DNA of 64,000 nucleotides from Cenococcum geophilum (Eukaryota), in NCBI GenBank assembly GCA_050273025.1, contig CP158635.1, positions 14,880,001 to 14,944,000 of the forward strand, in the 5' to 3' direction. Under the pieces are notes generated by a model. That model was not told the origin of the DNA, made no database searches, and was given only the letters and a program-made list of their open reading frames with translations. Numbering within the stretch: the first letter of the stretch is position 1; every line of letters starts with the position of its first letter. Made by a program: the position numbers and the translations under genes. Of this stretch, positions 28,406 through 61,847 are shown piece after piece.

Positions 28406-28563
28406 GCGGTCGACATTGATCGTACCCTCTGCCGTATTCCAATTCCCCGCTAAACTTCTTCTCCTGATCTTGCTGTGGCAGAGTTTGGAGGTTGTTGGAT
28501 CGCGAAGCAAGGGGATCTTGCGCTTGCTCTTAAGGGGCAGTAGTTAAAGTTATAGGTTGAATT

Positions 28564-36141: not shown

Positions 36142-37779
36142 ATAATATCCTTTTATAATAGCTATAAGTTATAAATCTTTTTTACTAACTGCTAAATAGG
36201 CTATAGTTATATAGCTATCTACTTTAGGATTAATTAACTATAGAAGAATATAGAACTCTAGCTACTTAACTATCTAAAATAGTAAGTTTTATATAATAAT
36301 TAACGTAATAAGGGCCTTATTAATAACTTCCTTATTTAGGACTATTTAGAGTACTTTTAAATCTAGCTCTTCTATCTTATCCCAAGACAATACTTTAAGG
36401 TAAAGGTCTTTTAATTAATCCTACATTACTTCTTTTATATAACTAGTTTTAGGCTTAACTATAATACTATACTTTAATACTAAGTAGTTTTATAAGTTAG
36501 AAGTTAGAAGTTAACTATATAGTATATAACTCTATATAGTGTTTATAATAGAATAAAAGATAGGCCTTTTTATTTTATATGGGCTTATTACTACCTAGTA
36601 GATAGGTATACTCCTATATTAAAAGAGCTAAGTAACCTCTTATATTTTTTAGTCGCCACTATTTATACACCCCCTACCTCATTTGGTTTAGATGCTTCCT
36701 CATTAAGTTAGATGCATCCTTATTAAGTTAGAATATTACATACGTTTAACTTATTTGCGCCTGCATCACGAAAATCAAAGTGCGAGTCCGTAGTACAGCT
36801 AGTATTTCGCTTAAATGCTAAGAGCCCTACGAGTAGATCTGTTGACGCGATTGGCAATTATAGAGCTAGTTATAGAGTTAATTAGCTGACCGCCGCGACG
36901 CTCTACAATTGCAGGCTCTTAAATGCGAAGTAGAGGTATTAATTTGGTCCTACCGGGCGCGGGCGTAGGCGCGAAGCAGAGGGAGCAGCACCTAAATTAG
37001 TTTGTGCGATGCCTTACAAAGCACTACGCAATCCAATTAATTAATTACCTCAGCGAGCTTAGACGCGATTTTTTAGCTAGCATTGGAATAACCTATGCCG
37101 TCTTCCGAATTGCAAAATCACGTCTAAATTACCTTAGCAAGCTCAGACGCGATTCTGTTGGTGCGGAGCCAGTCGGCCCACAAGCGAATAACTAACTACG
37201 TTTGTGGTAAACCACCAGAATCACGTCTGAGGGACATTTCTAACGTTTATTACATTTTCCGACAATATCCGCGTTGTGGAGGTTGCGGATATTAAAATAA
37301 CTTAATACTAGTATTTTATATCCTTTCCTAAAGTTTATTAATTATATAACAGAACCTAGGCTTTTAGGCTATATCATTTTTATTACTTAGGTATTCTTAG
37401 GTCTTATGCTTATTTTCGCAAAAAAAAACGCATTATTAAGGATTGTAGAACTCTATATAATTTTATTAAACGCTAGCTAATATATATAAAAACCATATAG
37501 ATCTACAATAGGTACCTTAGGGCACCTACTATAGCTAGGTAGATATACAGCATCCGCGTTATACTGGATAATCTTACTTTAAACCCTACTACAAGCCAAC
37601 TACCAAGTCACGGATATTTAAGTTAACCCATAGTATGCCGCTATAAAAACTTATTAGAAGGAGAGGTAGAAGGTTAAATAAGATACTAAAACAGCCGCTA
37701 CCGCATTAGGTGCCGGATACTTAAACTTAAAGAGGTTGTATAATAGAGTGGGCGCGATAGCTATGGGACCTTTAAGATT

Positions 37780-39460
37780 AGCTTCTTACGCTTTACGGAA
37801 AGAGCGAGGCCTAGTAGCTAAGTAAGGTTAATAAGGCTATTATATTTTTATATTTGTATTATAGATATATAAAGCAGCTTAAAGTCCTTAGGTGGTTACT
37901 ATTTAAGGAAAAATATATAATACTTATTATAAGAACCTTATTTAATAAGAGTATAATAATATAAGCAATACTATATCTTCTTCGGGCCTTAGTGGTAATT
38001 ATTATCTTGCTACTTAATATAATTAGTATAGAGCAGAAGGTAAAGATTAAGGAGCTTCCTAGAATAAGGCCGGTTTATATATATAAGGAGATAATATCTA
38101 AACGCCTTTTAGGGGAAATCCGCATTAGAGTATATACCTATATTTTAATATCGCTAGAGCTATTAGCTAGGGAAAAGCTCTATAAGATTCTTACCTACCC
38201 TACTTTCCGCGCATATATTGGCTTAGTAGTAATTAATAAGGTGCACCTTATAGCTAATTAGGGGGGTTTATTTTAGAGTTCGTATATACAGCTATAAAAA
38301 GTGCGGTTGTTATTAGGGCGAAGGCCTTAGTTTACTTATACCGCAACGCTTAATAATATAATATTTAAGATTATATAAGAGTTGGCGGGCTTTTAAGATA
38401 ATATTAATATAGTACGGACGTTAATTAACCGGCTAGATCTATTAATTATTAGAGAATATATTAAGCGAGGGAGTAAGAAGTCCTTTAAGAGCTTATACTT
38501 TGTTATAAACCGCGCATATAAAGAAGCTCTAAAAGGGAATCTATTATCTACACCAATTAGAAGGGTGTCTAGTTAGATATCTACTATATTTACCCATTAG
38601 AGGGTTAAATATACGCTAACTCCTTATTAGATCCCAAAGACGATTATCTTCTTTAATTTAAAGGAAATGATATTATAATGCAGAGACGCGATTTATTTAT
38701 AGTTAATATATTATAGGTACCAGAAAGCGCAGGCTAGAAAAGCAGTTTAGCTTTATTATATATTATTAGCTACTACAGATAAGGATAGACTATATAAGGA
38801 GTTTAGAAAGCCTAACTCTAAAATCTATTTTAGTTTCCTCTAATACGCTTACTTATAGCGCTAATATTCCTAATATTAACTATGCTGTATAGTATTACAT
38901 ACCTAAAATAAAGTTAATTAATATAATATAGCAACGATTTAGGCGCGCTGCTTATAGTAGTAGTTAAATAGGTATAGTAATATTCCTAATTAAGGATTAA
39001 TATAAAGGTCTATATAAGGATATTACTAGGCTAGCCAAAGGTTATAGTTATATAGGTAGAGCTTTCTAATTCTAGCCAAGTTAACTTAGACGTAAATATT
39101 ATATCGCGCGAGAGATACCGCAAGAGGTATCATAAGAAAACAGGGCTGCTAATTTTGCTAGTAATATATCTTTAAGAGTATCCATATATAGCGATATAGA
39201 TTCTAATCCGTCCGCATTTAATATAGGGTAAAAGCTTAGTTTAGGCGGAATATCCGTAGTTCTACCTATAGATATCCTACTAAAGAAGCCAGCGTGGCGC
39301 CTAAAGACTAAGGCCAAGAAAAGAGTAAAGCTCTCCTATTATATTTATGCTCTTATAAATAAGAAAAAGGGCTACTTATAAAAGATTATATTAGAGAACT
39401 ATAAGGAATAGTCTCTGTCCGCTAGTAGCTAGGGTTATTACTTTAACTATAATCCTACTT
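37780..39460 (+). pseudogene. RecQ-like SF2 helicase A (AcademH-like), RIP-inactivated
   Basis: De-RIP: RTSFGKS (motif I, ~37930), VIDEVHLIANWG (~38230), TATL, YGADIPDI, QRFGRAAR (~38932), CCxNC zinc site (~39435). Confidence 0.82.
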
Positions 39461-40329
39461 TGCAGGCTTTTAAAGAGTTTAATATCTATAAGCTGTATAT
39501 AGAGGGGGTTCTAAGGCAGATATAATAAAAGGCCTTTACTATAAGCATAAAAAACTAGTTCTGTAACTAGGCGGAAAAGAAATATTAGTATACTGTTTAG
39601 AATTTAACCTTAAGCTACGTTATATCTAATAAGCAAATTGCCGCTCTTTATAGCTACGCCTAGTATATAACTGGCTATAAGGCGCTTAAGAGAAACCTAC
39701 CTAATTAGAATTAGAATTAGCTTAGTAATAATCTAGATAAGTTTATTACCTTTATTTAAGCGGAGGTAGAAAAGGCAAATTAGGTAGAGAGCCAACTATT
39801 AGCATTAGTAAGTAAATTAAAAGATAGCGTAGAGCGGATATTACTATAGTCTAGAGTAGTGGAGAGGCGTATAATATTAGCAGCTTAAAGTCCGTAAATA
39901 TAAGTAGCCTAGTTACCTTAATTAATATCCGCCAAAAATTCGCATATAGGGCTACTAATACTATTACCTTCTTAGTTTATATCTAGTAGGAACGCGTAAC
40001 TAGCTAGCCTAAACTCTAGCTAGTAGAATACCTCTAGGCTAAGTATACTAAAACCCTATAACGGATATTAGTCCTAGCAACGCAATAATTAGGTTTAGTT
40101 TTTAACGCAAGGCGAATATCTAGGATCTTAAAGTTAGGCCCACTCTTAGATTTAACATTAGGCTAGGTATTAATAGCCCTAGGGTAATAATTAGCGTTAG
40201 TTATTATCCGGTATTAAATATCGGCCTCTTAGATATTAGGGTCTATACTATAATAATAGATATTAACTCCCTATAGCTCCCAGATATCTAAGTCTATACT
40301 ATAGTATTAGAAACTAGTCTCTAGGGTAG

Positions 40330-41070
40330 GCTAGGTATTATAGCTTATAAGGCAGCTTTATATTCTAACCCTTAAAATAATCTAGATATTAGAGCTTATA
40401 GCGGAGTATTAAGTTTTAGCCTTTAGAGCAATTTAGATATTAAAGCTTATAATAACGTGGGTGACAGGGTTTTAACGGTTTAATGGGTTTTGACGGTTTC
40501 CAACATCAAAACTCTAAGCGAGAGGCACAGACAAAGTTTGTATGGGAAACCTTAAAACCGTCAAAACCCTGTCACCCACGTTATAGTATTAAATCTAAAT
40601 CCTTAGGGCAGTCTAAGTATTAGAGCTTATAGTATAACACTAAGTCTTAACTTTTAGATAAGCCTAAGGTTTAATATTCGTAATATAGCACTAGATCTCC
40701 AATTATAAAAAATCCTAAAGTTTAAGATCTATACCGTAGCACCAGTTCCTAGGTAGTAGGAAATCTGGAAATTTAGAATTTAGAATATAGTATTAGATCT
40801 CCGCTCCTAGAAAATCCTAAGGCTTAGAATTTAGGTTATAATACTAAATCTCCGCTTTTAGGAAACTCTAAGGCCTAGGGTTTATAGGCTAATACTTAAT
40901 CTCCGCCCTCTAAACTAGGCGTAGTTTAAAATTTATATATTAATACTTAATCCCTATCTTCTAAATTAGGTACGGCTTAGAATTTACAGCCTAATATTTA
41001 ATCTCCGCTCTTTAAGCTAAGTGTAGCTTAGAACCTATAGCCTAGTACTTAATCTCCGCCCTCAGTTTTA
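40330..41070 (+). repeat. Degenerate ~51-bp tandem repeat downstream of helicase A
   Basis: AATACTTAATCTCCGC-like units at 40891, 40942, 40993, 41044; related units further upstream. Confidence 0.6.
40455..40581. mobile_element. MITE (Fot1/pogo-type ACGT termini), 127 bp
   Basis: TIR ACGTGGGTGACAGGGTTTT / AAAACCCTGTCACCCACGT with TA TSD. Confidence 0.9.
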
Positions 41071-41339
41071 GATATAACGTAGCTATTAGGTCCACCTCGC
41101 AGTAAGAAAAAATAAAAAGGCGTATTTACGCACTTTAAAAGTAAAAAATCCGCTTACTAAGTAAACCTAATATCTACTTATAACCCTTCTCTAGCACCTT
41201 AGCCAAGCAGTAATTTTATATTAATATTACTTTGTAAGTTAACTAGACGGCGCCCACTTACTTTAATTAGTAGTAACTTAACTATAAAGAATTTACGCGT
41301 TATAAATAAGCGTATATAAGGTAGTTAATATTTACTAAA

Positions 41340-43200
41340 GTAAGTTATAGCGGCGATTATTTATTAGCGAGCTAATTTAATAAAATTGGCAGCATGGATA
41401 TTTATCTTAATTAACCTCCGCACCTTTTCTTCTACTAACCTTCCACCTTACAGCACCGCACTATAAACTTTACCGTTATTATTTTATCTACTATCTATTA
41501 GTATACCACTATCTATAATACCTTTATTTATACCTCTAAATACATCCAACAGCTATTTAGTTAAGGAACTTAATATACGCGACGTTAATAATAAAATAAT
41601 TAAGGACGCTTTTAAGGACGCTCTTTCTTTTACTAATCCTTTAAAATCTCTACCTAAAGAGTAAGCTTTCTAATACTAAATTATGCCTATAGCTAATATA
41701 GTTTTAGGAAATATGTACTAAAGCACTCTTTATTAGATATAGCAGAGCACTATAATAATGCTATTGCAAAATCCGCTAGAAATCCGCTTACCTCTTTACT
41801 ACCTACTTCTCTGCCGCCTACCTCTTTGCTACCTTTATTTAAGCCGCTTATTTCTTTACCTATTACTTTTAAAAAGTTTAATCCTTATTATACTTCTACT
41901 TCTTTTAAAAGGTAGGCTAATAGAATTGCTGTGTAAAATATTTAGTATAAGATAGCTTTTAAATCGTATATATTAGCTATACTCTTTTAATATCTTATCT
42001 ACTAATTTACCTCTTATAGTAACCTAATAGAAATGTTAGAGATTTTAGATAATAATAAAAAGAGTAATCTTAATAACGCCGACTCTCCTAAAAGCCCTCC
42101 TCTATTATTTTATAATCTCTATAGTCCTCGTAATCTCTACAGTATATAAATGGCCTAAGCTATAACGTTGGATATTGACACAAATAAGTGTCTTCCTATT
42201 TAGGTGCCGTTAGTAAATAAATATTATACCCTAAAAGCTAGTGCTTAGGAGAATATAAAGGAAGCTTGCTAGCGAATATATACCTATATCCAGAATATTA
42301 AGGGTAGCTCTAGTATACTATATAATCCGCTATACGCTCTATATATTAAATAAGATTATAAATATCACGTTTATAAGCAGAACTCTAGGCTATATTTTAG
42401 AGGCGCGTACTTAAGATATTGCTTAAGTGGTAGGTTATATAGAAAGGTATATACTAATAATATACTACTATTCTATCGGCTAATACATATATAGGATAGT
42501 TCGCTAATACTAAAGCCGGTTATACCTTAGTGCAAAAAACATACGCAATTAGCTTCTATTAATAGTCTAGCTAGAACACCTACTAAAAAGGTATAATATC
42601 CGTATAGCTTTATACCCGCACTATCCCCCCTCTAGAGACCTCCCCTCCCCCTAAAACTCCTACCTATAGTAATATACGCAGCCGTAGAGGCACCCGTTCT
42701 GCTGCTGCTTTTTTTTACTCTTTTACTAATTCCTAGTACGCGTAGTGCTGCTTCTAATACTACTGCCGCTCCCGCTAGTACAGAAAATGTTAGGGCGTAT
42801 TTAGCAATTGCTGTTTCCGCGCGCGTTAATATAGTTTATAAATAGGTAACTAAGATAGTAAAAGATACTCGGGCTATAGATCGCCAGTTAAGTAAGCTTA
42901 AAGATTCTCTAAGTAAGATAAAGGATAAACTTGCGTTTATAAGGCGTAGTATTACTACATTTATATATAATACTGGGTTGCCAAATATAGAATTTAAGTA
43001 GATATAGGTTGGCTATTATTACGGGTTTAGAGTAATAAAATAGTAGCTTTTATCTCTCTGCTATTGCATATATAGGAATTAAGTCTCTACCTTATATTTA
43101 ATAGATATACTTAATTAATATTATAATATCTATATAGGCTAGGATAAGGATATCCGTATAAGCCAGGATAGAGATATTTATATATCTGCACCGTTAATGT
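41340..43200 (+). pseudogene. Intron-containing cargo gene, copy 1 (hexa-Cys motif + coiled coil)
   Basis: GTAAGC..GCTAAT..TAG introns; de-RIP C-x2-C-x6-C-x14-C-x2-C-x6-C at 42333-42440; tandem copy follows. Confidence 0.6.
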
Positions 43201-43209
43201 TTACTAGGG

Positions 43210-45190
43210 TAAGTCACTATAGTAGCAATTATTTATTAGTAAGCTAATTTAATAAAATCGGCAGCGTGGATATTTACCTTAATTAACCTCTATACCTCTT
43301 CTTCCTCTACTAACCTTCTACCTTATAGTACTATACCGCGAACTTTATTATTATTGTTTTATATACTATCCCTTAAAATACTACAATCTATAATACCTCC
43401 ATTTATACCTCTAAATAATATTAATACAAATAATAGTAACTAGGCAGTTAAGGAACTTAATATACGCGACGTTAATAATAAGGAGTTCAATACTGTTAAG
43501 CACGCTATAACTACTCTTACTAAGCCTTTAGGCTTTATTTCTAAAGAGTAAGCTTTCTAATACTAAATTATACCTATAGCTAATATAATTTTAGGAAATA
43601 TATACTAAGGCGCTCTTTATAGAATTTAGTAGATAACAATAATAAGGATAAAGCAAAATCCGTAGAAAACCTACTTACCTTTTTACTAGATGCCTTTCTA
43701 CTGCCTATATCTTTGCCATAGGCTACTTTACCATCCACTACTTTACTATCCGCATCTCTACTGCCGCCGCCTAATATATCTAAAAAGAGGCTTAATAAGG
43801 CTTGTTTGTTTTCTTTTCTTAAAAAGTGGGCTAAAAAGGCTGCTAATACGAATATAAAGCTTAAGATAGCTATTAAATTGTATATATTAGTTATACTATT
43901 TTAGTGTCTTATCTACTAATTTACCTCTTATAGTAACCTAAATACTATATATAAGGTTTCTTTAGATAGCGAATCTTTAGACGGCGACAAAGATAAGGAC
44001 CTTAATAATGCTAACTCTCGCAATCTCCGCAGCCCGTATAATCTTTATAGTACTCCTAATATAAATAAGCGCCTTCCTATCTAAGTACTATTAGCGAATA
44101 AATAGTATACTCTAAAAGCTAGTGTTTAGAATAATATAAAGGAAAGTTACTAGCGGATATTAACACACGTCTAGAATATTAAGGGTAGCTTTAGTAAGCT
44201 ATATAATCCGCTATATACTCTATATAAGAAGCATAGCCACAAATATCGCGTTTATAAAAAGGTCTCTGGGCTATATTTTAGGGGTGCGTGCTTAAGATAT
44301 TATATAGGTAGTAGGTCGTGCGGAAAGGTACATGCTAATAGTATACTATTATTCTGTTAGCTAATACACGTATAGGAAATTTTACTAAATCTAAAGCCGG
44401 TTATACTTTAGGGCAGAAAATATGCGTAATTAGCCTCTGCTAGTAGTCCAGCTGGAACACCTACTAAGAAGGTATACTATCCGCATTTTAATAATATGGA
44501 TATTGCTAATATTCGCATAGCTTTATTCTTATACTATCCCCGCCTACGCCACTACGCCTCCCCCTACTAAGACCTCCCCTCCTATTAAGACTCCTACTTA
44601 TAGTAGTATGCACAGCTGTAGGGGCACCTACTCTACTACCGCTCCTCTAACCCTTTTGCCAATTGCTAGCACGCTAGGTGCTACTATTACTACCGCCGCT
44701 TTCGCTAGCACTAGGTCTATTAGGGTATATTTAGCAATCGCTGTTTCTATATATATTAATATAGTTTATAAACGGGTAACTAATATAGCAAAAGATATTC
44801 GAGCTATAGATCGCTAGTTTAATAAGTTTAAAGATTCTTTAAGTAAAATAAAGGATAGGCTTGCGTTCATAAGGCGTAGTGTTATTATACTTATACGTAA
44901 TACTAGGCTACTAGATATTAAATATAGGTAGATATAAGTTAGCTATTGCTACAGGTTAGCTATTATTACTAGTTTATAATAATAAAATAGTAGCTTATAC
45001 CTTTTTGCTACTATATATATAGGAACCAAGTCTCTGCCTTACATTTAATAGATATACTTAATTAATATTATAATATCCGCATAAGCTAAGATAATGATAT
45101 CTATATAAGCTAAGATAATAATATCCGCGTAAGCTAATATAAAAATATCCGCATAAGCTAAGATAAAGATATTTATATATCTGCACTATA
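43210..45190 (+). pseudogene. Intron-containing cargo gene, copy 2 (tandem duplicate)
   Basis: Colinear with 41340-43200; motif at 44214-44321 retains two TGC codons (GAC, RSC). Confidence 0.6.
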
Positions 45191-45249
45191 AAATAGCCTA
45201 CTGCTATATTATATACTACGCACTAAGAAGATTATACGCTAGCTAGAGT

Positions 45250-47750
45250 TAATATTAATAAAAAGAACTCGATTAATATATTAAGATAAAAACGTACCAT
45301 AAGCCTAAGCATTTAAAAGTCCTCTAGTATATTATCTATAGCCTTATTAAATCCGTCCTTATAAAAGTTATATAGTAAACCGCTAATATAAGACATCCGT
45401 ATATTAAAATCAGTAATACCGCCCTATAAGAGCCGCTCTAATCTAAGTTAAAGAATAGTAAGTGCCTTAAACCTAATGTCCTGCATACGCTAACGCATAA
45501 TTAAATCCTTAGCAATTATATCTATAAGGGACTGGATATTAACCGCAGGAGACTTAATTATATAATTGGATATCGTCTACTTACTAAATACATCCTTAAA
45601 CTTAGTATAAAGAGGTCTAGTATAGCTTATAGTAAGAACGCTCTACCTAAATAGAGAGTCTACTCTAAAGGTTAAGTTTCCGCGTAATTAGAGTAACTCC
45701 TTTAGCTAAAGATTTATTAGTTTATTAAGTCGATTAGCTTTAAAAAAGCTATTTAGCTATCCATAATTATTAATTAGCCCATTTATAAGTATGGCCTACT
45801 ATAGTACTAGATTATACGCCTTTATTATAATTAACCTCTAGAAGTATATTATTTTAGATATATAGTTATTGCTCCTTAATCCGGCGAAGTAAAGGCAAAC
45901 GTAGGCAATTATACGCTTTAAAAGGCTAATATCCGCATACTTAATAGCATATTTCAACACTTTATATATTTTAACCACCTATAGATACCAAATATAATTA
46001 AAGAACTCTATATTAATAATCTAAGCAGGCTAGCTCGTAGTAGCAGAGTTAGGTACTATCTAAGAACCTCCGCAGGTAAAGGGCTGCAAAGAAACCAATT
46101 TATTAGCCTTATAGCCGACGTTAGAGCTAAAACCCACTGCGTAGACATCCTCAATATACTATAGAAACTGCTTAGGCGTTAAGGATCCAATATATCTTTT
46201 AATCGCACCTTCTTTGTAGATATTAAGCCTATCGCGGATATGTGTTAAGAAGAGTGCAATAATGCAGGCATTAAAACTATATAGTACTAGCTCCTTAAGA
46301 TAGTAAAAGAGAGGGCACTTTATAGGAATATTTTATCGCCTAAGGTGATTTATATAAGTATAGAGCGTAGAGTACTACTACGTATATTACTTACTACTAA
46401 AGAAAGTCCTTATAATTATATATAGGAAGTTTAACTAGAGGTGCCAAAGACCTAAAATAGGTAGTACCTAACGGTGGCTATTATATAAGAGCGTAGCCTC
46501 TACTCACTCCCGCTTATAGGCGTAAATAAGCTTTATAGTTTTCTAGTCACCGTACGCTAGATATAATTGGTCCTAAAAATCGTTATCGTAATTAAGCTGT
46601 AGTTGCTCTAGGAAGATCGTCTTAAGTATACGGTAGTTGCTATTTATAGAAGCCTCGCTCTTTATAATAGGGCCCAGGTTTATATAGGTTATCTTTACAG
46701 ATAGTAAAATATTAATCTCTGGTATACGCGGATATTTAAGCTCAGTATTAGATTTAAAAATACTATTTACGGCAGTAGAATACGTGCTTTAGAGAGCATC
46801 GGCAATTATAAAAATAGATATCTAATTTTAAACGCTATTATATATATTACCTAGCGCCTTAGCAATATCCTTAATCTAAAGCTATACCTAGTTATACAGC
46901 ATACTTTAAAAAAGGCTATTAGGGGGAATATAAGATCCGCGGATAAGCTTTCCAATAGTATAGGAATGGAAAACACTAATATCTCCAATTAACTAATATC
47001 GCGTTTGCTTAAGGTAGTTAAAATTATTATATATAATATAAATATTATTAAGTGCGGATATTAATTAGAGGTAAGTCTTTAATAACATTAGCGCTAGTAT
47101 ATCCGCCGCTAGTATTATAACTTTCCTTAAAGCGTTTAGCTAATTCTATCTTTTAGCAGTTAAGCGTCTTATATCCGTTAATAAGCCCTAGTCTATAAAG
47201 CAGTAATAGAACCCAACGCTTTATACCTATACCTTAAAAATAAAAACTAAGAAGCTAAGTAAAATAATTAGCAGAGCTTTAAGCGCGGCTTAATAAAAGG
47301 ATAGATATAAGAAGAACAACCCGCCCTAAGTGCGGATTTTATAATTTATTAATTCTTAACTATGCCAATAATCCTTCTATTAGTTAGTAGAGTAGAGGGG
47401 CATATTAGCTAATTGCTTTATAGCCCTCTAAGAATTAAATATCTTTAAACTCTAGATCTAACTTCTATAGGCTAAAGATAACCGTCTTCTGCTAAAGATT
47501 ATAAAGCTCTTTATAAAAGATATCTATAACTACATTAATTAGTTCCAAATAGATATCTACAGTCTCTATAATCGCATTATAGATTTCTTCGTCCCCTAGA
47601 AGGGTAGTAATAAGCTCCTTTACCTTCTTCTTTTTTATCTTCTTCTTTCTTTACGTATTATCTTTTTTTACAGCACTAAGCTATAGCCACGCTAAAGAAA
47701 GGTTACTAAAGGACCATCGCCAGTCCTATAAATGCTCTAAAATAACCTTA
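45250..47750 (-). pseudogene. DUF6589-type (Academ-like) transposase A, RIP-inactivated
   Basis: LAYGD*KT..YxSHR*VLPILGLWHL at 46438-46560 (GDQKT...GLWH motif); boundaries approximate. Confidence 0.7.
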
Positions 47751-48589
47751 ATCTTCTCTTCCTTTATTATCTAGCGCGATATCCACTCGGCAAATGCTCT
47801 AGTTAGTATTTAAATAGGCGTCCGCCGGTTAACTAATATTATATTTATAGTGGGAGTAAGTAATTTAATTGTTAACACATCACCTATTTAGCGGCGCTTT
47901 CTGCTTAATATCGCGGAGGCTAGTAGGGTAGAGATATTTATCGATTATAGAGCTGCTTCTACGGATTAATTTAACGGTATTTCTAAGATAATAGCTGCTA
48001 TAGGGGTGTAGATTAATTTCGTTAAAGATAGTAACTGCTCTATATATAAAATAAGTTATGTCACTTAATAAAGTCTAGAAAAGTCCCTTAGACCATAGAA
48101 TTAACTTTTTAACAAAAAAGGTTAGCGATATCCGCTTGCGGATATACGTATGTCCGCTAATTAATTCTATAGTCTGAGCTTGCTAAGGTAAACGTCTAAG
48201 AGCCTTTGGCGAGTTTTATTAAAATTATAACTAAAATCCGCCAAGCAGAGATTGCGGATATTTAATTCATTTATTTATATAACGCATTATTATTACTACA
48301 TAAAGCCACTTTTTTTTTTAAGACTTAGGGCTTCTAAATAGTATAAATTTTATAATACGGCTATTACTTAGTCCTAATATTAATTTCATTAAAGTTAAAA
48401 ATCGCGTTGTTAAAATTATAAATATATATTATATCTTATTAAATAGTCTACTAATATAGATAAAACTATACAGATCTATAGATATCTACTACTTAAAGCT
48501 ATTGCAATACCTAGTAGGTGTTATAGTTAGGTCCTTCCTTAAAAATACCCTCCCTTGGCCCGGAGAGCCTCTGCTACTACTAGGGGGTA

Positions 48590-49260: not shown

Positions 49261-50379
49261 TACGCAGAGGGCTGGCCGCGTGGGCGTAAGCGTTTAGCGT
49301 TGGTGTTTACTGCGCGGCTCGGCGGTCCAGAGGTAAAATTAGGGCCTCTACGGCGGCGACTTCCTCTTAACATTGCGCGGGTATAAGGAGCTAAGGATCT
49401 CATAGCTTTATAGAGTAGGCTTTTCTCTATAATTTGGTGTACTTTTAATATTAATAGATATTATGGGAGGGTAGATTAATTTCGTTAAAGTTAATAAAGT
49501 CTTCTTATATAAACAGTGTTTAGGTTTTCTACAAATCTCGCCAAAGTCCCTCAGACCAAGAAAACGATTGCCGTCCTAAATCAGCTTAGCGGACGGTGCG
49601 GATATTCCTATATCCGCACAATCGATTTCTTAGTCTAAGCTTCTAAGGTAAATTAATTAACTCAGGCGCGATCTGAATTTAGACTCTACTACTTATACTA
49701 TAACTAAAATCGAGACTTAATCGTAATGTTGCAGTTGTAAAACTTATATGGCGCGTACTTTAATTTTCGCTTATCTTAGTATGCTTAGACTATATAGGAG
49801 GCCGGATAAATCTGGCCTGATGGCACTAAACCAGTTTAGGCCATCTATCCCTGTGTGGTCTAAGACACTTTAGCAGACGTTTATAAAGCACGTCGCGATA
49901 TCCGCATAGCTAATATTACGGATATTCACTTCTTATTCTTACGACAAGTTTAGGCAGCTTAAAAAATCCATTAATTATACACTAGGCTCCGGCGAATCAA
50001 ATAGTCTATATAAGAAGTCTCCCCGCCTTTTTATTCCTAATATTAATTTTAAAATAGCCGTAACGCGGTTTGCTAAAGTAAATAATTAGCAATATCCGCA
50101 CTAATAACGCGTTAATTTTAACTACCCACTCTTTATCTATTATATCTATAATCTAATAATTAAAACCTATTAAGATCTATCTATTATAACGTATTTAAGT
50201 CCTCCCTACCTTTATTTAACCCTCTATTCTCCCTCTACTACTTTTAAGCGCTATCTACTAATACCTCTATTAAAGTAAATAAGGTAAAGAGGTTGTAAAC
50301 TATAAGTTAGTTAAGTAGATTAATAAGCTAGCAGTACGTAATAGGCTAGGGATTATATTAAAATGGATCCCTAGCGGTC

Positions 50380-52060
50380 TCTACAGCTATATAGCCTGTG
50401 GAGGAAGCTACCCTAGCTTATAAGCAGCTCTTATAAACTTTAAATAAGTAAGCTAGATAAAGCTATTGCGGAGATATATCCGTACCGCGGTTATATAAAG
50501 CAGCTCAAGGCCCTAAGGGTGCTAATATTTAAGCGGTAAGATCTTATGCTTGTAGTAAAGACGTCTTTTAGCAAGAGTATAATAATATAAGCACTACTAT
50601 GTCTTATACCTAATGTAGTTATTATTATTATTATTCTACTTAACGCGATTAGGTTAGAGTAAGTAAAAAAGATTATAAAGCTACCTTATGTTTAACCTGT
50701 TTATATATAGGAGAAAACAATATTCATTAAGCTAATTAAGGATATCCGCATAGGCAGCTATATACATATCCTTATCTCCCTAAAGCTTTTAGTTAGTAAT
50801 AAGCTATATAAGGTTCTAATAGACCCGATATTTCGTTCCTATATTGCCCTTATAGTGGTTAATAAAGTACACCTACTTACTAATTAGGAAGAGACCTTCC
50901 GTATAGCATACACACAACTCTTTAAAGTACGTTTAGTCTTAGTTAATAAGCCTTAGTTTATATATACCGCAACACTAAACCCATCTATATTTCAGACTAT
51001 ATATAAGCTAGCTAGGTTTAAACCTAATATATAAGTTATTAAAACCCTAATTAATTGGCTAGAGCTAAAGATTATATAGAGGGTTATAACCGCGCTAGAG
51101 AAGAAGGACTTTTAAGCTCTTTACTTTACTATTACTACTGCTTTAGTATATTTATATACTACTAGTAATAGTAACTAAGGAGAAGGCGAGTAATTAAAAA
51201 GCTACTTAATATCCACACAGTAGACATACCGCTAATAGTTTAATTAACTTTAGCTAATTTTAAAGACAATCATCTTCTTTAATTCTAAGGAGTGGATAGC
51301 TGCCTATTGTAATACTATTTATAGCTAGTTAATCTATTATAGCTATAATACTACTATTGCTAGAGAAGCGGTGTAGAGCTACTACGTAATGCTTACGGAT
51401 ATTAATAAAGACCGCTTATACGCCGAATACGCGCGCCCAACGTCTTAAATTTAAATTTTTATTGCATTAGATGTAGTAGTATACAGTATAGATATCCCAG
51501 ATATCTACTATTTAATTTAATATAGAATGCCTTGCTATAAATCCTATAATATACTGGCACAGCGGTTTAGCCAGGTAGGCTAAAGAGAAGGCCTCTTAGG
51601 CGAAGTAATCTTTATAGTTAAGAGCCGCTGGCGAAGTCCTTATAATAAATTAGGTGGTTCTAAGTATATATAACCTTAGTATATAGGCGATCTTCGCGTA
51701 AGCGCGCTGCGTAATAATATCCGCAGGCGATAAAACGTAGAGACTGCGGATATTGCGGGCGATGCTTTATCTATAGCGTTAGTTAGTATTAAGCAGTTAG
51801 TAGATATAAGAAGCGGGCGTAGGTTAAGCCCTAGTAGTTCTATAGTACGCCTACCTAAAGAGCTTATCGTACTAACCCTACGTCTAAAAAAGCGGTTAAC
51901 TAATGCGCAGTTACATAGTAAACTGCCGTTCACCCTATAGCGGCTAGTTAATAAGGATTAGGTATACTTATAAGTAATATAACTTATATACTATAGAGAC
52001 CTACAGTCTACTATTAGTAAAGACTTATATTGCAGTAACTATAACCTAGTAATATTTATG
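50380..52060 (+). pseudogene. RecQ-like SF2 helicase B (AcademH-like), RIP-inactivated
   Basis: KTSFGKS (~50560), VVDEVHL..WGETFR (~50855), TATL, GMDIPDI, QRFGRVG (~51560). Confidence 0.82.
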
Positions 52061-52999
52061 GATTGTAAGTACAATATTTATACTAGCTATAGTATAGATA
52101 TTACAAAAACCTACTAGGAGCCTATATTAAGCAATATATAGAAGTAGTTATATAATAGGCGGAGGCTAGGTATTAGGATATATTATAAACGCCTATAGTT
52201 AATTGTGTTATACTAAATAAGTAGCTTTATCGCCTCTATAATATAGGGTAGGTTTTAAATATAGCATCATTAAGGCAAGCAATGCCTAAGTGGAATCCTA
52301 ATATCCTTAGTAAGGAGCTTCTATCCCTTATTAAGCTTTTAGCAAATAAGAAATAAAAATAGAAATAGAAAGAAATAGGGCAACTCTTAGGTTCTTCTAG
52401 GTTAATTATATAGATATTAAAGCGGTTTTCCTAAGCATTAAAGCAGCACGCTGCTATAAATAAGCGCTTATTATAGGCTCTTATATAAGCTTTACAGGTT
52501 TTAAATAGAAGATTTAAAATATTAGCGCCGTGGCAATTAGCGCCTTACTATAGCGCTAATATATTGTAGGCTAGTTAATAGTTAGCTATAAACCTCTTAC
52601 TAATAACTTAGGAAGAGAATATACCTATACCTTTACTAACTCTTAGGTCTCCAGCTCCTACTTCTCTATTATTACCCTTATACTAACCGTCAGATACATC
52701 TATACCGCTAGCAACCCGCTAGTTAGATATATCTTTATTAATACTATAAAGGCGGTTAGCGCGATTAAATAGAGGTAAACGTATATAAAGAGCACTATAG
52801 GAAATTAATGGTAACGCTAATTAGTATATAGCGGGCTAATATTAGGCAAGGTTAGTTAATATTAGGCAGGGTTAGCTAATACTAGGTAAGTTTACCTTAT
52901 ATCTACTAAGCGGATATTATAACTATAGTAGCTAATATCTATTAAAATAACGCCCCCCTTTCCCTTATACCTTATACCCCTAATAAGCGCGGCCTAGGA

Positions 53000-55900
53000 A
53001 CTAAATAGATTAATTAATTAATAATATTAATTACTTAGGAATATGTACTAGTGCTACTAACTATAGCGGATATTAAACGGTTGTAGTAATAGCTTATAGC
53101 TAATATCTTATATTACTTATTAAGCAACTTATATATAGGTTAAAGCTAGGTTTAAGTAAAGTTAGTAGGGAGTATAAAGCCATCTAGCTTATTATTATTG
53201 TTATAGAGATTAAGCTTATTAAACATGGCGGAAAGATTACCGCCTAGCCGTAAATTAAACTTATTAAGGGCAGATTAATTAAGTCGTTTAATACCTAGTT
53301 ATAGTAGAGGCGGCGCTTTTATCTTTGCTTACTGTGCCTAACGGCAGATAATAGAACCTTCGGCAATTACATTAGTAAGTAATTAAATATCCGCTATAGG
53401 AGATTTAATAGTATATTAAGTAGACATCCGTTCGCTAAATATAATCTTAAACTTTATACGTAGTGGCCTTATATAATTAGTTATATAAAATAACTTAAAA
53501 ACCTATAAAGCCGCAACAGCAGCGAAACTAGCCCAAAACCACTTAATAAAGCAACCCGATATCGGAATCCTATTCCCCGCACTGAGAAACCCCATAAAAC
53601 CACGTCGCCCCCATCTAGAGCATGGGGGACGACGGAGGGGCGCAGGCTTCCTACTAGAGTCGTAAGAGTTGTGACGCGCGGGAACCGAACCATGAACCAG
53701 GTAGGCAATAACGCGAAAAGGACAGCTACTAGCAATAGTAAAAACTAAAGGAAACACTTAAACAAATTAAAGACAATCTTATAAAAGAGGAGGAAGAAAC
53801 CCTATAGCACTAAATACTTGCCTTTATTTAAGAGGTAATATAGTATATTAAAGCCCTCTTAACGCGTCTAGTCCTCTAGATAACCTAAAAATAAAAGACT
53901 AAGGCCTAGCTTAACCAAATTAAAGCTAGTATTAAGAAAATCCAAAAAGAAACGCGTAAAGGAGGACCCCTAGGCCTAGGAGTTCCCCTAGTACAGGTCT
54001 AAACCTAGGCAGCCGTTACTACGTAAGCGGCCCGCACGGTAAATATAGTCGCGGCACTATAGAGAGCGAGTATACGCGTCTAGCTTAAGGAGCCCTAGGG
54101 CTATAAACTAAGGGAGCTTCTTAAGACTATTTAGAGAATAATACTAAGCGTATACGCCGTACGCACCCTTAATAGTGGGGACGTAGATATTTATATCCCC
54201 TCCTAAATAATAAAGGACTAAATCCTAAATAGGCCAAACGCGCCAGGACTTAGGATACTAAGGAAAGATTACCTCTTAGAAGTACTAGGAGTCCCGCTTA
54301 AGACTCTAATTAATAGCGGAAGGGACGTAGATAATTTAGAATTAACTTAATCCATTTATAAAGCCACGAAGCGCCTTATACCTAGGATAACTATTAGCTA
54401 GATCCGATAGCTATACGACCCTAAAGTATAGGTAAAACGCCAGGCAAACTCCAGCAGCGCCTAAAAAGAACCTAAGAAGACTAGGGGAATAATTATAATT
54501 AGCGTCCTAACCTAAGCAATTTAGTAAAAGATTATAAAAAGCGGGATAGTTATTAAATCCCAGCTTTTTAAGACTAGGCTATTTAAGAATAGCGTAATTA
54601 TAAAGTAATGCTACCGCTATAATTAATAGGGGTATATATAAAGCGTATGCGGAAAGCAAATAAAATATAGGCAATGTGCGGGACAATATAACACCACAGA
54701 TTGCCCTAAGAAAAGGGTATCCTATATTAACTGCGGTAAAGCCTATAAAGCATAGTAAAGAAAAGAGTGTAGGACCTTTTAGAGCTACCTTAAAGGTATC
54801 TAAATAAAAAGAATAGCCCTCTTAACGCAGTTGCTCCGTATATAAGAAGCCGCAGAAACAATATACCAACCCTTAATACTAGGAAACCTTATAATCAGCA
54901 CTAATAAGAAAAGAGGATGGGAAATATCTTACTTAGGGACTTAAGAATAACCACTTAAACGGGGACCAGGTAAACTATCTTTTATTAAAATAGTAAGCAG
55001 AGATAGATTATAATTAAGGCTCCGGCTTCGCGCTAATAGAGTAATAATAGTTAATAGCAAAAACAATAAGGAATAGAACATAGATATAAATGAGCTTATA
55101 CCTACTTTAAATAAGTAAATATACAATTATTTAGTATAACTACGGAAATGCAAACCAAGGGGCGTATCGCCCCTTCTTTGACAGCGTTACGCTAGCGGAC
55201 TACTAGGTCCTTATAATCTAGGAGCTAGTATATAATAGATATACTAAATTAACATACTGCCCTAGGGGATTTACACTTATATATAACGCTCTCCCTATAA
55301 TAAAGGTCTGCTTTATAATTAGCCGGAATATAAATACCGCGTATTAGAAGCGTAGATAGTACGGCCCCTTTACTATAGCCCTCTAGGTACGCCTAAAGGG
55401 GCTAAAGGCTATAATTATTAATATCTATAACCCGCGCGAAGATGGCCCTTAGATTAGGGCATAGCCTAAGGTTAAAATAGCTATTAAGGAAGCTAAGGGA
55501 AAAATTATACTCTTAGGTAACTTTAACGCCTACTATCTAATATAAGGCGGAAAGTATATAGCTAGCAAAGAGCAGGCGGAACGCCTTTTAGCCAAAACCA
55601 ATACTAGAGGCCTAGTACTCGCTATACTAAAAGGAAAGCCTATATAGAAAAGAGGGTAATAGGAAAGTGTAATAGACCTCACGTTTATATCACCAGATTT
55701 ATACAGAAAAGTTAACTTTTATAGTATAGTTAAGGAATAGGCCCTTATAAGAGACTATATACCAATCCGCATCTAAATTAATAACACTAGCTATCCGCTA
55801 GCGGAACGCTAGCGCCTTGCCCTTAAGAAGCTAAACTTATAGGGCTTTCTTTAAAGTATCTAGGAGCTTAACTGGACTATATCTAAAGACCCTATTTAAG

Positions 55901-58900
55901 CCCTATAGGAAGGGATTAAGCAAGCACTTAAAGAATACTGCCTATAAGCACAGCCTAGCTAGTAGGCCCGTTAAGAATAGTCGCCACAGGCCATATAGCT
56001 CTACGCCGGCGCCTAATAGGCGCGACGATAGCTCTAAGCTTATAATAACCCTAAAGACCACTAAAGATATTTAGTATTAAATAATTAATTACAAAAAGAG
56101 ATTAGGAGAGTCAGTTATAATAACTAGAGACGCTTTATTTATAAACTTACTAAAGATTAATTAAAACTATATAATAAGGGACTTTAGACTCTATTAAAAT
56201 AGAGCAGAAAAGTAAGCGTAGTAAAGGCGGACCCCTATCTACTAGACCTTAGGAGGTCTACTAAGGATCCCTTAATAGATAATAATATCACAAAGGCCGA
56301 TATTCTTATAGCTAAGTTCTTTCCTAAAACTGGAATAGTAGACCTTAGCGACATAGAGATAATAAGGGAATAAAATGTGCTTAATATTAGCCCCACTATC
56401 TTAATAGAAGAAATTGGTAAGCTTATTAGGAGTCTTCTAAATAGAAAAGCCCTAGGGCTAGATAGCATACCAAATAAAGTCCTTAAAGTAGCTGCCCTAG
56501 TTATTACAAAAGATTTAGCAGAAGTAGCTAGTTATTACTTTACTAGCGGAATAATACCAGAAAGTCTTAAAGAATCTATAACTATAGTATTATATAAAGA
56601 AGGAAAGAAAGACTACTCTTTCCTAAATAGCTATAAACCAATTACCCTTAAAAATATACTAGCAAAAGTCCTAGAAAAGTACGTAGCTAATATTATATCT
56701 AAGGCTGCGGAGGAGTATAGACTACTTCCTTAGAACTAGATAGGAGTAAGGCGTAAACAATCCACACTATTAGCGGTAGGACTGCTTAGCTCTTACGTAT
56801 AAACGGCGTAGCAAACGCGCCGCGGGTATATAGTATTAATGCTAAGCCTAGACTTAGCAGGGGTATTTAACAACATCTCCTATAAAAGGCTCCTCTATAT
56901 TTTAAAAAGAAAAGGCTTTTTAAAGTAGCTTATAGATTTTATATAAAGCTTCCTAACAGTACGTAAAACCTATATTAAGTTTATAGAATATAAGAGTAAC
57001 TAGATTTAGATACAGACAGGCATCCCCTAGGGGTTACCCTTATTACTAATCTTATTCCTCTTTTTTATATTAGAGCTATTAGAGGAATTCTAGCGCCCTA
57101 ATAGCAGCACGCTAGGGTTTAGCTTTATAGATAACATAAACCTTATTACCTAGGGGGACTCCGTGGCAGAGAACTGTTAACAATTAGAGGCCGCCTATAA
57201 CTACTGCGCTATATAGGCAAGTTAATATAGGGCGGCGTTCGCCCCTAAGAAGTACTAGCTTATACACTTTATAAGACAACGGCGCCATGCCACCGCAGAC
57301 CTTACGTTTACCGTGCGCATCGCCAGCTACAAGACAGCCCCCTAAAAAACCAGCATGCGAGTCCTAGGGATCTAGGTAGACCCTAAGCTCTAATAGAAAG
57401 AATAGGTTAAAAAGGCTGCGAGTAAGGGCTTAGTAGCCTTTAAAGCAATATTAAGGATTACTACATCTATATAGGGCCTATTAATGCGCCGCTTACGCCT
57501 CCTATATACAGCCACCGTCTAACTAGCGATACTATATAGCGCCTAAGTGTAAGAAGTACGGGATAACGGCAAAACGCCAGTAAAAAGCTTACTTAAACTA
57601 TTATAGAAAGTCCAGAACTAGTGTCTCTATAGGGTTATAGGGGCATACTAGCAAACACTAATAGCTGCAATAGAGAAGGAAGCGGCTATTCCCCTAATCC
57701 AACTCTATATTAAAACGACAGCCCTCTAAAAAGCCGCCAAGACGGCCTCTAATAGGGTAGAAAAGGAATTAGTAAAGGTACTTAACGGTATCTGGAATAT
57801 ATTAGTAAAGCGCTAGCAAAAAACAAAACGGCTACTAGTACTATTAGAAGCGCTTAGGGAACGCGTAAAGGACTATAAAAATAAAATATAAGGCTTCCTT
57901 ACGCACTAGAAGGACTATATAGAGTAGGAAGCTATAATAAACCCCTATAAGCGCGGCCAGCGGAACGCCGGCAAAGCGTAGGTGGAGCGCCGCTACTATA
58001 TAGGAGGTCACCAGCACTAAAGGCAGGTAACCACCTTTATTGCGAAATGGGCAGATTTAGAATAGCAATAATAGTAGTAGGTAAAGGCTAAAGACCGCAC
58101 AGAAACCATATAGAAGACCCTATAGGGGAAACCTATAATCCTATTATACGAAGGCCTAATAAAAGCAGAGGCTATAGCACTATTTCTTCTTTATATAGAG
58201 GTAATAGGGCTTAATATATAGCTTATATCCGTTAGTATACCAGCGGTTCTCCTATGGTGCGAATATAGCTAGATAAAGCAGATAGTCTACTATATGCTAT
58301 TCTAGTGTCCACACTACCAAAGGGCGGACTTTATAGCAAAATGCGCCTCTAAACGCCTTTAGGATGTTTTAAATAATAAAGAAAGCGCCTAAGCGGCAGC
58401 AAAATGGCTAGTACAGTTAGGTGCGTTACCCTAGTTTTAGGTAGTAAAGGTAATAGATATAGAGAATATAAGTAGATACTAGCCCTTTTAAAGCCTAGAG
58501 GACTGGTAAAAGAATAAGGGTAAAAGGATAAGGAAAGAAGGGGGTAGAGTAAGATTATCCGCGAAGCGCGGCTAGTTAGCTTAATATGCAGACTTAAAGG
58601 CAGGTAGAAGGCGAGCCGCCAGCGCTCCGATGTCGGAACGCTGCTATCTCTCCAGCGCGGCCCAAGGTGGGGTTTTCTCTAAGTTAGAGTTTTTCCTATA
58701 GAAGGTATTAGCCTGCGTGGACCCACTAGAGGGACCGGGACGGGCGGTAAATTGAATTTATTATTATTATTAATTAGTTATATAAATACTCTAGCGAAAG
58801 AGTAAGTCTAGGTTAAATATTAAATTGCCACAAGTGTATATAAGCTACTTTAGCTCCCTATTAAGTAGCTCGTTATTAAAATCTATTAGGTAGTAACTAT

Positions 58901-60950
58901 CCTATTTACCGCGGATATTTACTAAACTATTTACTAGAATAGCTTACTAGAGCTTAGGGGAATAAGCATTTATTAAAGTTAACTAGAAGAAACGTAATAT
59001 CTTTAGTAGATAGTTCTTATTTTAACTACCTATAAAATAGATATAAATGCGGGGGAGTACGCGGCTAAGTAGGCTAATATCCGCAAGCTTAATAGCGTGC
59101 TTAAGGACCTTATACGTCTCTACCAGTTATAAAAAGCAGACGTACGTTAGAAACTCTACATTAGCAGGCTTAGAAAGTATTTATAAGGATATAGTACTGC
59201 TAGCCTACTTAAGGTAACCCTTTTGCCGTAATTCCGTAGGCTAGCTAGTATAGTTAGCCGCCTAAAAGACTTCCTAACCGAAAACCACTATACGGATATT
59301 CTTAACTACTGCTAATAAACGTTGCGAAGATAGGCTTTTAAGGTACCACTTAATATCTATAGGCGACTTAGTGTTATAAGACTCCTTAATTTAAGTATAG
59401 AGCAACGCTATAATATAAGCGTTAAAGCTATAGAGAATTAGCTCCTCCATATAATAAAACGGCGCGCGCTTAGCTAGGATATTTCTTTAACCTAGGTGGT
59501 TTATATAGGTATACAGCGTAGAGTACTCTTAGGCTAATTGCTTACCACTATAGTAATACCATATAACTATATATAGGTAGTTTAGCTTTAGGTACTAAAG
59601 AGCTAGAATAGGCAGAGCCCAACATAGGCTATTATAGGCGGATATTAACTTAGTACATTCTCCCTAATATAACCGAATAAGCTTTACGGTCTTTTAATCA
59701 CTATAGATTAAAAATAGTCACGCCTTAAATGCTTTATCGGTGCGTTATAGATTTATTTAATAGAGAAAAATGTTATCTAGTACCTTATAGGTTTTAGATA
59801 TAGAAGCCTCTTTAGTTATAATAGGTCCTAGGTTAAACCTAGACGTCCGCGTAGCGGGTATTACATTAATAGAAGGCATACGTGGATATTTAAACCGTGG
59901 GTTTTTGCTAAGTAATATATTAAGGCCTGGGTACGCCTCTATAATAGCTTTATAGATTAAAGCTATTAAGATCTGCTTCTATATCTTATCTTATAAATTA
60001 CCTAAAGCCTCTACAATATCTAAGAACTTAATTAAAATATCCGTATAAAGCATACTCTGTTAAAGCCTACTATTAGGTATACTTATACTAAAGACAAGCT
60101 TACCAGTTATACGCGAATAGAACGTCCTAGTATCCCTAAGTATTTAATACTAAACTCGTTAAAGGTAGTTAAAGTTATTATAGATAATAATAGTATTAGA
60201 AGCTGCACCTATTAAGCGGATTTTCACCTATATATAGGTTAGTATATACCTATACCGCGGAGATTATAGGCTAAACCTTAATTCCTAGGCTATCCGCTCC
60301 TTCTGCTAGTTTAAAGTAGTATAACCATTAATTAATCCAAGCCTATAGAGCATAGAAAGCACGTGGCGCTTAACGCCATTAGCTTAGAGATATATCCCTA
60401 ATAGCCGTAGAATATAGTTTACGAAGTTTTATAAAAGGCTAAATATAAGCATAAAAGCTATTAGAACCGCACGGCCTTTATATAGAGAACATTTACATTA
60501 ACCCTCTTAATATGCTGTAATTATATGCTCTAGTATAGGTGCGTAAGTCTTTATAGCTTAATAGCACTGCCTAAGGTTAAGCTGCTTAATATCCGCATAT
60601 TAGTTAAAGCTGCTAAATAATAACTCTTTCTCCCTTAGCTCTTTAAGCTCTCCCTAAATAGTAAGAGTAATACTAGTACCCACTATACCGCGCTTCTCTA
60701 TCTCTTTAGTATAGATATTTAGGATATTAGCATCCTCTAGGAGTTTGTTAAGGAGCTCCCTTACTCCTTTTTTCTTTAGTGCCTTACGTAAACCTTTAGC
60801 CATTATAATCCATTTAAGCGCTAGGTCTCCTATAGACATCCACTATAACCTAAAACAGTTAATAATTACCCAGACCTTCTCTATAGCGGATATCTTCTTA
60901 GCAGATATTACAGATATTATAGATATTTTATTAACTCCTACTTCTTTATT
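53000..60950 (-). pseudogene. DUF6589-type transposase B, split by the LINE
   Basis: De-RIP GDQKT..YDSLRWALPIPALWHLKLNY at about 59580-59705; paralogous to transposase A; boundaries approximate. Confidence 0.7.
53490..58770 (+). mobile_element. Full-length Tad1-like LINE (ORF1 with CCHC knuckles; ORF2 APE-RT-CCHC), RIP-inactivated
   Basis: 16-bp TSD TAATTAGTTATATAAA (53474-53489, 58771-58786); QYNC, LLGDFNAHH, KAPGPDGIPN, GIPQGSPLSPILF, FVDD after de-RIP; (TTA)n tail. Confidence 0.93.
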
Positions 60951-61847
60951 CTCTTAGGGATCTATATAGTTTAGCAGTAGTAAGTAGGCTATTAAGGACC
61001 GCTATTAAGCTATAAATAGCGATGGGGGAGATAACAGGGGAGACGATAGGGGAGATAATGGGGGTGGGATAAGACGGCTAATGCCCTCGGGTACTATATC
61101 CGCTATATCTCTTAATCCTCTAGCGGTATTAGTTAATAGAGAGGGTAGTTTATTATTAAAAGCTTAAGAAGACTGGCTCCTGCTAGACAAAATAGAGGGG
61201 TTTCTTTAACGCCTTTTAAATGCGCCTATAGCTAATAGTTAGTTCTAAAAAATCCATTAATTAAAGAGCTAATTAAGGCAATTCTAATATAGGTATTAAT
61301 AGGATAATAGACGTGGCGGTTGCTTACATTAATTTTATTAAAGTTAATAGTTTGCCTTATATAAATAGACCAGCTTAGCTTCTAAAAGCTTGCCAAAGTG
61401 GCTTAAACTAAGAAATAGATGGATTGATCAAATAGGTTAGCTTGCGGATATTTATTGGTTTCTTGGTCTAAGCATGCTAAGTTAAAATTTTCGCGATGCA
61501 CGCGTAAACGCACGTGATAGCAGTCTTCACCACTACGTGCACGGTCCCACTCAATGTACGGTTTTTTCTTACCAAAATTTGCTTAAATATACCTTTTTAT
61601 ACTACCTATAACTTAATAACCTTTTAACAGAATTTTATGAAATTCTTAATATAGCTTATTAAATACTAAAGCTATAATTTTATGTAAAAATATTATAATA
61701 TATTCTAAAATATATATACTTAAAATTAGGTTAAAAAAGTACTTTTTTAGTAAAGCTTAGTATTATTAATAATACTATTAATAAAGCTATTATATAGCTA
61801 GATTTTATATATATTTATATATATTATATAAATAAGTGTTTTTAATA

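Follow-up and report, generated by a model that had tools for sequence, protein, structure and literature searches.

For most eukaryotic cut-and-paste transposons, target choice is ascribed to a short sequence where they insert or to the state of the chromatin. In this report, we analyze a 64,000-nucleotide stretch of Cenococcum geophilum DNA (assembly GCA_050273025.1, contig CP158635.1, positions 14,880,001 to 14,944,000; hereafter the window, numbered from its first letter), which lies on one contig of a 178-Mb, seven-contig fungal genome and contains nested DNA transposons of the AcademH type, reportedly a lineage of the Academ superfamily treated by Kojima in 2020 (Mob DNA 11:15). Ordinary genes occupy the first 25 kb of the window; from about 25 kb on, the GC content drops to 0.22–0.49, accompanied by indices of repeat-induced point mutation (RIP), and beyond 34 kb the longest surviving stop-free frame has at most 142 codons. 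The genes there were read with X at stop codons or taken from unmutated copies that occur naturally at other genomic loci. The outermost component is a miniature inverted-repeat transposable element (MITE), which holds the AcademH-type elements N and B and a TA-duplicating 2.1-kb element, whereas element A lies within N and a long interspersed nuclear element (LINE) within B (Table 1). Our main subject is the target choice of the families to which these elements belong, which insert at a fixed distance from family-specific motifs.

Table 1 Features of the nest (TIR, terminal inverted repeat; TSD, target site duplication)
Feature	Position in window	Strand	Remarks
Outer MITE	36651..63789	.	about 0.7 kb without inserts; GG..CC ends; multi-copy
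Outer MITE, 8-bp TSD	36643-36650 and 63790-63797		TATTTTTT
Outer MITE, own pieces	36651-37044, 49652-49770, 61486-61519, 63621-63789
N, non-autonomous family-C AcademH-type element	37045..49651	+	own sequence 37045-37128 and 48192-49651; 12-bp tandem repeats; 9-bp TSD ATTAATTAA
AcademH-type element A	37129..48191	+	11,063 bp; 84 nt inside N; 9-bp TSD ACGTCTAAR
RecQ-like helicase gene of A	37578..41316	+	RIP-broken; long low-complexity tail; located by tblastn from intact 1184-codon frame; DEAD and Helicase_C
MITE of 127 bp inside helicase gene of A	40455..40581	.	ACGT ends; TA duplication; missing from other aligned A copies
Accessory gene 1 of A	42006..42998	+	cysteine cluster and coiled coil; two reading frames; weak sub-cut-off Zn_clus and DUF3716 matches
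Accessory gene 2 of A	43920..44922	+	paralogue of accessory gene 1; also in family C
Transposase gene of A	45274..47944	-	N-terminal frame 47944-47051; DDE/DUF6589 frame 47139-45274
AcademH-type element B	49771..61485	+	6,443 bp without LINE; 9-bp TSD AATTTTCGC
RecQ-like helicase gene of B	50174..52821	+	RIP-broken; best solved-structure matches RecQ, WRN, BLM
Transposase gene of B	53116..61283	-	two pieces, 61283-58773 and 53487-53116, LINE between
LINE retrotransposon in B	53490..58770	+	5.3 kb; endonuclease and reverse transcriptase (RVT_1, Exo_endo_phos_2); 16-bp TSD; RIP-broken
E-box CACGTG of outer MITE, target motif of B here	61511..61516	.	starts 31 nt outside right end of B
Non-coding element of 2.1 kb	61520..63620	.	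about 320-bp TIRs; TA duplication; inside outer MITE

The nested elements and their classification

A preliminary description of the locus had recognized A and B as two units with a helicase gene and a DUF6589-type gene each; both units are real, but their nesting in a MITE, the family C, and the two accessory genes of A had been missed. The same description called the units tandem, which was not borne out, as A and B belong to different families (intact proteins 39–52% identical), and separate TIRs of about 20 bp at both ends, together with a separate 9-bp TSD, are present in each of A, B, and N. A and B adjoin through nesting and not through tandem duplication, as independent insertions of two families. 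The order of events begins with the MITE, into which N and B inserted; A then entered N, the LINE entered B, and RIP came last. Compared with intact copies, 929 of the 935 substitutions in the window's B and 1,710 of the 2,079 in its A are C>T or G>A, and both are RIP-killed copies of AcademH-type transposons in a region that carries a RIP signature. In the outer-MITE family, 15 of 15 two-ended copies are flanked by an 8-bp TSD (length 654–738 bp), and another copy of the host repeat, which represents the empty site, contains the target 8-mer just once. Members of this family have GG ends and subterminal repeats of 20 to 22 bp (36651-36800, 63621-63789 in the window). A composite element of 27 kb was ruled out, because the outer inverted repeat (36.65–63.79 kb) consists of the ends of a 0.7-kb MITE that occurs whole elsewhere.

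The proposed assignment to AcademH was supported: a RecQ-like helicase gene is convergent with the gene of a DUF6589 protein that is modelled like DDE transposases, between TIRs and 9-bp TSDs, and the elements showed every AcademH feature that was tested. From this architecture and the TSD, a link between DUF6589 and Academ would follow. Both minus-strand frames of the window, read with X at stops, match DUF6589 (E 2e-30 for A, 4e-33 for B). The DEAD and Helicase_C matches that had been suggested as a check were obtained above the cut-off in the intact copies of A and B; in the window, B gives a weak Helicase_C match below the cut-off (E 0.006), and the profile search with the frame of helicase A gave no Helicase_C match. 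The unmutated copies additionally have a sub-cut-off RecQ_Zn_bind match. The helicase is RecQ-like, with the sequences TSFGKS and DEVH and a cysteine cluster; the unusual motif I noted earlier, TSFGKS, and the second noted motif, in the form GDQKT...GLWH or ALWH, are both present in intact copies. Housekeeping Sgs1 and telomere-linked helicase (TLH) genes, which had been named as the identities that would speak against an AcademH element, were ruled out by copy number, location, and TIR-bounded context. All of the 150 scored helicase candidates matched, they are scattered over interstitial sites on all seven contigs, all but 8 have in-frame stops, and the fetched copies lie inside elements bounded by TIRs and TSDs, not in a subtelomeric array or as a single-copy gene.

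The single-sequence fold of transposase B was unusable (predicted local distance difference test score, pLDDT, 34.7), and the prediction was repeated with an alignment of 148 sequences, which raised the pLDDT to 79.6. The resulting model best matches the transposases of Hermes (Z 9.9, root-mean-square deviation 5.6, 301 residues aligned) and the P element (Z 9.8, 5.9, 347 residues aligned), followed by integrases; Foldseek returned nothing at E <= 0.001 with this model and ranked Hermes first. D529, H564, and E805 are nearly invariant in the 148 sequences, and D370 in the first strand of the model may represent the first acidic residue of the DDE triad. The model thus supports a transposase of the DDE type with an RNase H-like fold.

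Seven unmutated copies of B, each 6,443 bp long and at its own locus, fall into four identical and three identical sequences with 6 differences between the groups. They have reading frames of 883 and 957 codons, no accessory gene, and no further long reading frame, and 11 of their 14 flanks consist mostly of non-RIP DNA. For the window's B, the preliminary description gave the strands of both genes correctly, but the helicase gene, placed at about 50.4–52 kb, is longer, and the transposase gene, placed at about 53–61 kb, is not one stretch, its middle being occupied by a LINE on the plus strand. In three metatranscriptome runs, contigs span intact B from end to end with spliced joints; in a fourth run, examined as raw reads, B is almost devoid of reads, with only 4 of 30 bins covered, all of them at its edges. 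Eight of the ten listed joints are GT..AG introns on the transposase strand and occur also across the helicase gene, to which this RNA is therefore antisense, whereas a single joint of the CT..AC type, from one run, hints at some RNA in the helicase sense. An intron of 49 nt near codon 335 divides the 957-codon frame into frames of 334 and 600 residues, so that the transposase of B is likely to be made as two polypeptides. The antisense RNA over the helicase gene and the split transposase frame may reflect self-regulation or a two-subunit arrangement.

The A family has dispersed copies, among them one unmutated copy of 10,887 bp on contig C5 with a helicase frame of 1184 codons and two transposase frames of 302 and 629 codons, whose junction is similar to the intron junction of B. 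A helicase gene of A had been placed at about 37.8–39.5 kb on the plus strand, which was correct for the gene but too short for its extent. It is interrupted in the window by a 127-bp MITE, which we take to be mariner-like. A duplication of 1.9 kb (72%) in A corresponds to a small gene, present twice, whose product is cysteine-rich, contains a coiled coil, and has Zn_clus and DUF3716 matches only below the cut-off. N has uninterrupted copies elsewhere, and its ends match those of an autonomous family, C, of 11,091 bp. The middle part of about 5 kb, comprising the helicase tail, both accessory genes, and the last approximately 77 transposase residues, is common to A and C and 93–99% identical per 500-nt block when transitions are ignored, whereas the helicase core and transposase body are 36–53% identical. 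The most diverged part is the N-terminal transposase frame, with 36–39% versus 50–53%, as determined with RIP-hit C copies. Such a mosaic implies recombination between the families, as far as can be judged from the alignments. The TSDs of 9 bp are perfect, with transitions tolerated, in 32 of 35 two-ended copies of B, and were also found in 13 of 13 two-ended copies of family C/N and in 10 of 13 pairings of A, where the other three involve a doubly nested locus and a site that is a palindrome. The existence of more AcademH-type families is suggested by additional TIR variants, found in seven fetched sequences, that enclose different inner sequences. The helicases end differently in the two units (window 52700-52821 and 41200-41316): intact B ends with RRSARL and RRALQEIN and A with RKSTRRRPLTSISSN, and these tail motifs may be akin to the core of a nucleosome-binding motif and to a destruction box.

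Target motifs at a fixed distance

B inserts beside a CACGTG-type E-box. This rule was first noticed in RIP-decayed flanks and then tried on fresh sets. In the flanks fetched first, CACGTG or a single RIP variant of it starts 30–32 nt outside one end in 14 of the 47 ends listed, one of the 47 being a mis-picked A end. At the seven intact copies, the motif is always located at 30–31 nt, exact in four cases and with one mismatch in three. Genome-wide, YACGTR starts 29–32 nt outside 61 of 191 exact B ends (52 exact CACGTG by our count), compared with a single end in a control shifted to 19–22 nt; since one motif side per element is expected, these 61 ends represent about 60 of some 96 B elements. 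Metagenome contigs provided 82 B ends, 78 with enough flank and 77 of these distinct, and an exact CACGTG at 29–32 nt was present in 23 of the 76 that lie outside the genome sample (0.19 expected), a comparison that covers the fetched genome ends, at least one more metagenome end matching a genome-wide row. Counted per element, 29 of 35 B elements have the motif within one mismatch, versus 4 of 105 control windows. Among 42 exact hits, 40 are at 30 or 31 nt, with 25 at left and 17 at right ends, and the gap between the motif and the duplicated target is 15–16 bp, whichever end of the element faces the motif. The consensus RTCACGTGAY is symmetric beyond the core (T before it in 23 and A after it in 27 of the 42), which fits a dimeric binder. 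The window conforms to this rule: the E-box next to B is also present in three uninterrupted copies of the outer MITE, so that it predates the insertion of B and explains the position of B in this nest.

C inserts beside another motif, TKASTMA, again with either end of the element facing it. The motif was noticed at the same distance on inspection of 20 C-type left-end loci, taken in contig order. In a cross-test, it was found near 11 of 51 C ends (0.21 expected) but near none of 78 B ends and none of 82 A ends, while the E-box was absent from all of the 51 C and 82 A ends. In the whole genome, TKASTMA is located at 29–32 nt from 98 of the 885 ends of A or C type (94 C-type, 4 A-type), as opposed to 8 at 19–22 nt (3 C, 5 A). 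By eye, about 27 of the 94 C rows are repeated hits in the same host repeat, though both element ends occur there, and five are located in the right TIR of B itself. A second C peak at 39–41 nt, seen by eye, was absent in a strict count.

For A, the evidence is weaker. A de novo scan gave CCGA at 27–30 nt, and the genome-wide count gave CCGA at 29–31 nt in 22 of 374 ends, compared with 2 in the control. A would insert beside CCGA, and often within the ends of other AcademH elements: of 20 fetched A copies, which were not picked by flank, 7 have another AcademH end no more than 100 nt away, where by our arithmetic chance would give well under 1%. The target rule also accounts for nesting, because other elements carry the motifs. 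In other N copies, the segment corresponding to window 37120-37131, 84 nt from the left end of N, is a hotspot at which several different A-type elements are inserted within 3 nt in both orientations.

Possible mechanisms of target selection

A spacing that is constant to 1–2 nt from a separate motif, and a motif that changes between sister families, point to a modular targeting mechanism. We favor a model, to which we assign a probability of roughly 55%, in which a host factor bound at the motif provides the docking site for the transposition complex. A host basic helix-loop-helix (bHLH) factor of the Cbf1/USF type would serve as tether for B and a Yap/AP-1-like basic leucine zipper (bZIP) protein for C; an adaptor in the fast-diverging N-terminal transposase frame or in the helicase core would contact the factor, the helicase would participate in target engagement in an ATP-dependent manner, and the DDE protein would carry out cut-and-paste (or copy-out) chemistry. 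In a profile search, the genome gave 11 HLH and 14 bZIP matches, and judged by sequence, the host proteins L279 and L289 are presumably Cbf1-like and Yap1-like, respectively. No HLH or bZIP domain was found in either B protein with Pfam. CACGTG is a Cbf1 site (PMC3408426) and TGACTAA, TTAGTCA, and TTACTAA are Yap1 sites (PMC6545440). Accessory genes and helicase tail are common to A and C, which nevertheless differ in their motif; these parts therefore do not set the target of C, and the determinant of specificity would be either the helicase core or the body of the transposase. The Zn-cluster-like accessory genes were accordingly ruled out as selector of the C motif, since A shares them and B lacks them; they might still select the CCGA of A. 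A complex prediction for residues 125–335 of transposase B and a dimer of the host bHLH protein L279 gave no answer (score 0.00) and weighs neither way.

Several points weigh against docking on a host factor. N and A in the window are not located at the motif spacing of their families, an exact motif accompanies only about a third of the C elements (94 ends among an estimated total of roughly 550), and the A motif comes from a de novo scan, with 8 of its 22 hits in the discovery sample. The proposed link between motif and factor relies on yeast motifs, and the targeting data come from a single host species. Furthermore, the N-terminal transposase frame is a helical domain, for which an atlas search gave only hypothetical fungal proteins and which could read DNA itself, and the C motif overlaps the start of the right TIR of B (TGACTCAGC), so that a TIR-binding domain might recognize some targets.

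The last two points lead to the main rival reading, which we consider less likely, namely that an element-encoded domain, either the N-terminal transposase frame or the C-terminal domains of the helicase, reads the motif and places the element at a fixed distance like TnsD in Tn7, the match to host sites being mimicry or convergence. The fixed spacing is just as compatible with this view, the N-terminal frame differs more between A and C than any other part and is separated by splicing in B, and A combines Zn-cluster-like genes with a CCG-type motif; however, related proteins would each have to read one of two unrelated host-factor palindromes together with flanking bases, the B proteins showed no match to a known DNA-binding family, and C has the Zn-cluster-like genes of A but another motif. 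Improbable is a process without specific contact, in which bound factors open the chromatin or bend the DNA, leaving the transposase to use whichever accessible site is closest. Nucleosome-depleted regions do contribute to Tf1 targeting (PMC5371812), and the flanks of intact B are mostly non-RIP DNA, as mentioned above, but mere accessibility would hardly direct B only to E-boxes and C only to AP-1-like sites in one genome, or produce a peak 2 nt wide. Hardly any weight is left for the notion that both units together make up a single 27-kb element, tandem or composite, or that the enrichment of motifs is an artefact of duplicated flanks or selection: outer TIRs and an 8-bp TSD enclose both units and some flanks recur in repeats, but the outer ends belong to a MITE, A, B, and N have TSDs of their own and free-standing copies, the de-duplicated metagenome flanks give the same peak, and selection would not fix a spacing to 1–2 nt.

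If docking on host factors is adopted, AcademH may tentatively be regarded as a eukaryotic Tn7-like targeted system with an exchangeable adaptor, whose sister families would dock on bHLH, bZIP, and possibly Zn-cluster factors and insert 30–31 nt away with the RecQ-like ATPase as a bridge, and the intact, transcribed B might then be a ready-made, re-targetable integration tool. The seven unmutated copies of B make the system directly testable, and the poorly studied Academ superfamily gains a testable biochemical question, including the purpose of the helicase. By inserting next to bHLH and AP-1-like sites, the elements would come to lie in regulatory DNA, where they could rewire stress or metabolic genes.

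Related systems and further features of the window

In Tn7, TnsC and TnsD combine the transposase with an AAA+ ATPase and a fixed offset from a recognized sequence. The elements described here are similar in having a transposase, an ATPase, and a fixed offset; they differ from Tn7, in which the selector is element-encoded, a single chromosomal site is used, and the ATPase is of the AAA+ and not of a RecQ-like type. TnGBS, ISLre2, and ISKra4, prokaryotic elements with Mutator-like DDE transposases, insert 15–17 bp upstream of sigma-A promoters, with a specificity signature in the N-terminal region (PMC3942029). Like B, with its gap of 15–16 bp, they show a DDE transposase acting at a fixed distance from the site of a host protein, and near-symmetric ends that permit both orientations; unlike B, they are bacterial, are directed to sigma-A -35 boxes, and lack a RecQ-like helicase, and the excerpts consulted mention no switch of motif between sister families. 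Among fungal LTR retrotransposons, Tf1 and Ty3 owe their target choice to DNA-binding factors of the host (Atf1 and Sap1; TFIIIB/TFIIIC) (PMC11054761, PMC5371812), although deletion of Atf1 changes Tf1 targeting only modestly (PMC5371812). These are retroelements with integrases, whereas a DNA transposon with a presumptive tether is concerned here.

Academ elements have been described from a range of fungi, Ascomycota among them (PMC10799480, PMC5751038, PMC8290104), and AcademH is described as having TSDs of 9–10 bp, a length to which the helicase is linked (PMC10045372). The elements analyzed here agree with AcademH of the Academ superfamily in the combination of helicase and DDE-type transposase, the TIRs, the 9-bp TSD, and the fungal host. 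They differ in their high copy number, with about 1,100 exact ends, as AcademH is described as low-copy in Ascomycota (PMC10799480), and in features that the excerpts of PMC10045372 and PMC10799480 do not describe, i.e., family-specific motifs at a fixed distance, the duplication of a cysteine-rich accessory gene, and a transposase frame in two parts. Target motifs of Academ were not found in the literature searched, which did not take in Kojima 2020 or its supplements. We are thus apparently dealing with a known kind of element whose target rule switches between families and is undescribed in that literature.

Outside the AcademH-type elements, about 1 kb within the 2.1-kb TIR element (61843-62852) matches another repeat of the window, at 32647-33649, in inverted orientation with 80% identity. 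At 27512-29876, a pair of 190-bp direct repeats (93%) flanks tandem arrays of 12 bp and 33 bp, possibly a small element resembling a long terminal repeat retrotransposon. Among the ordinary metabolic genes, a frame of 1018 codons is present on the minus strand at 12708-15764, the C-terminal part of which, judged by eye, we take to be AlkB-like.

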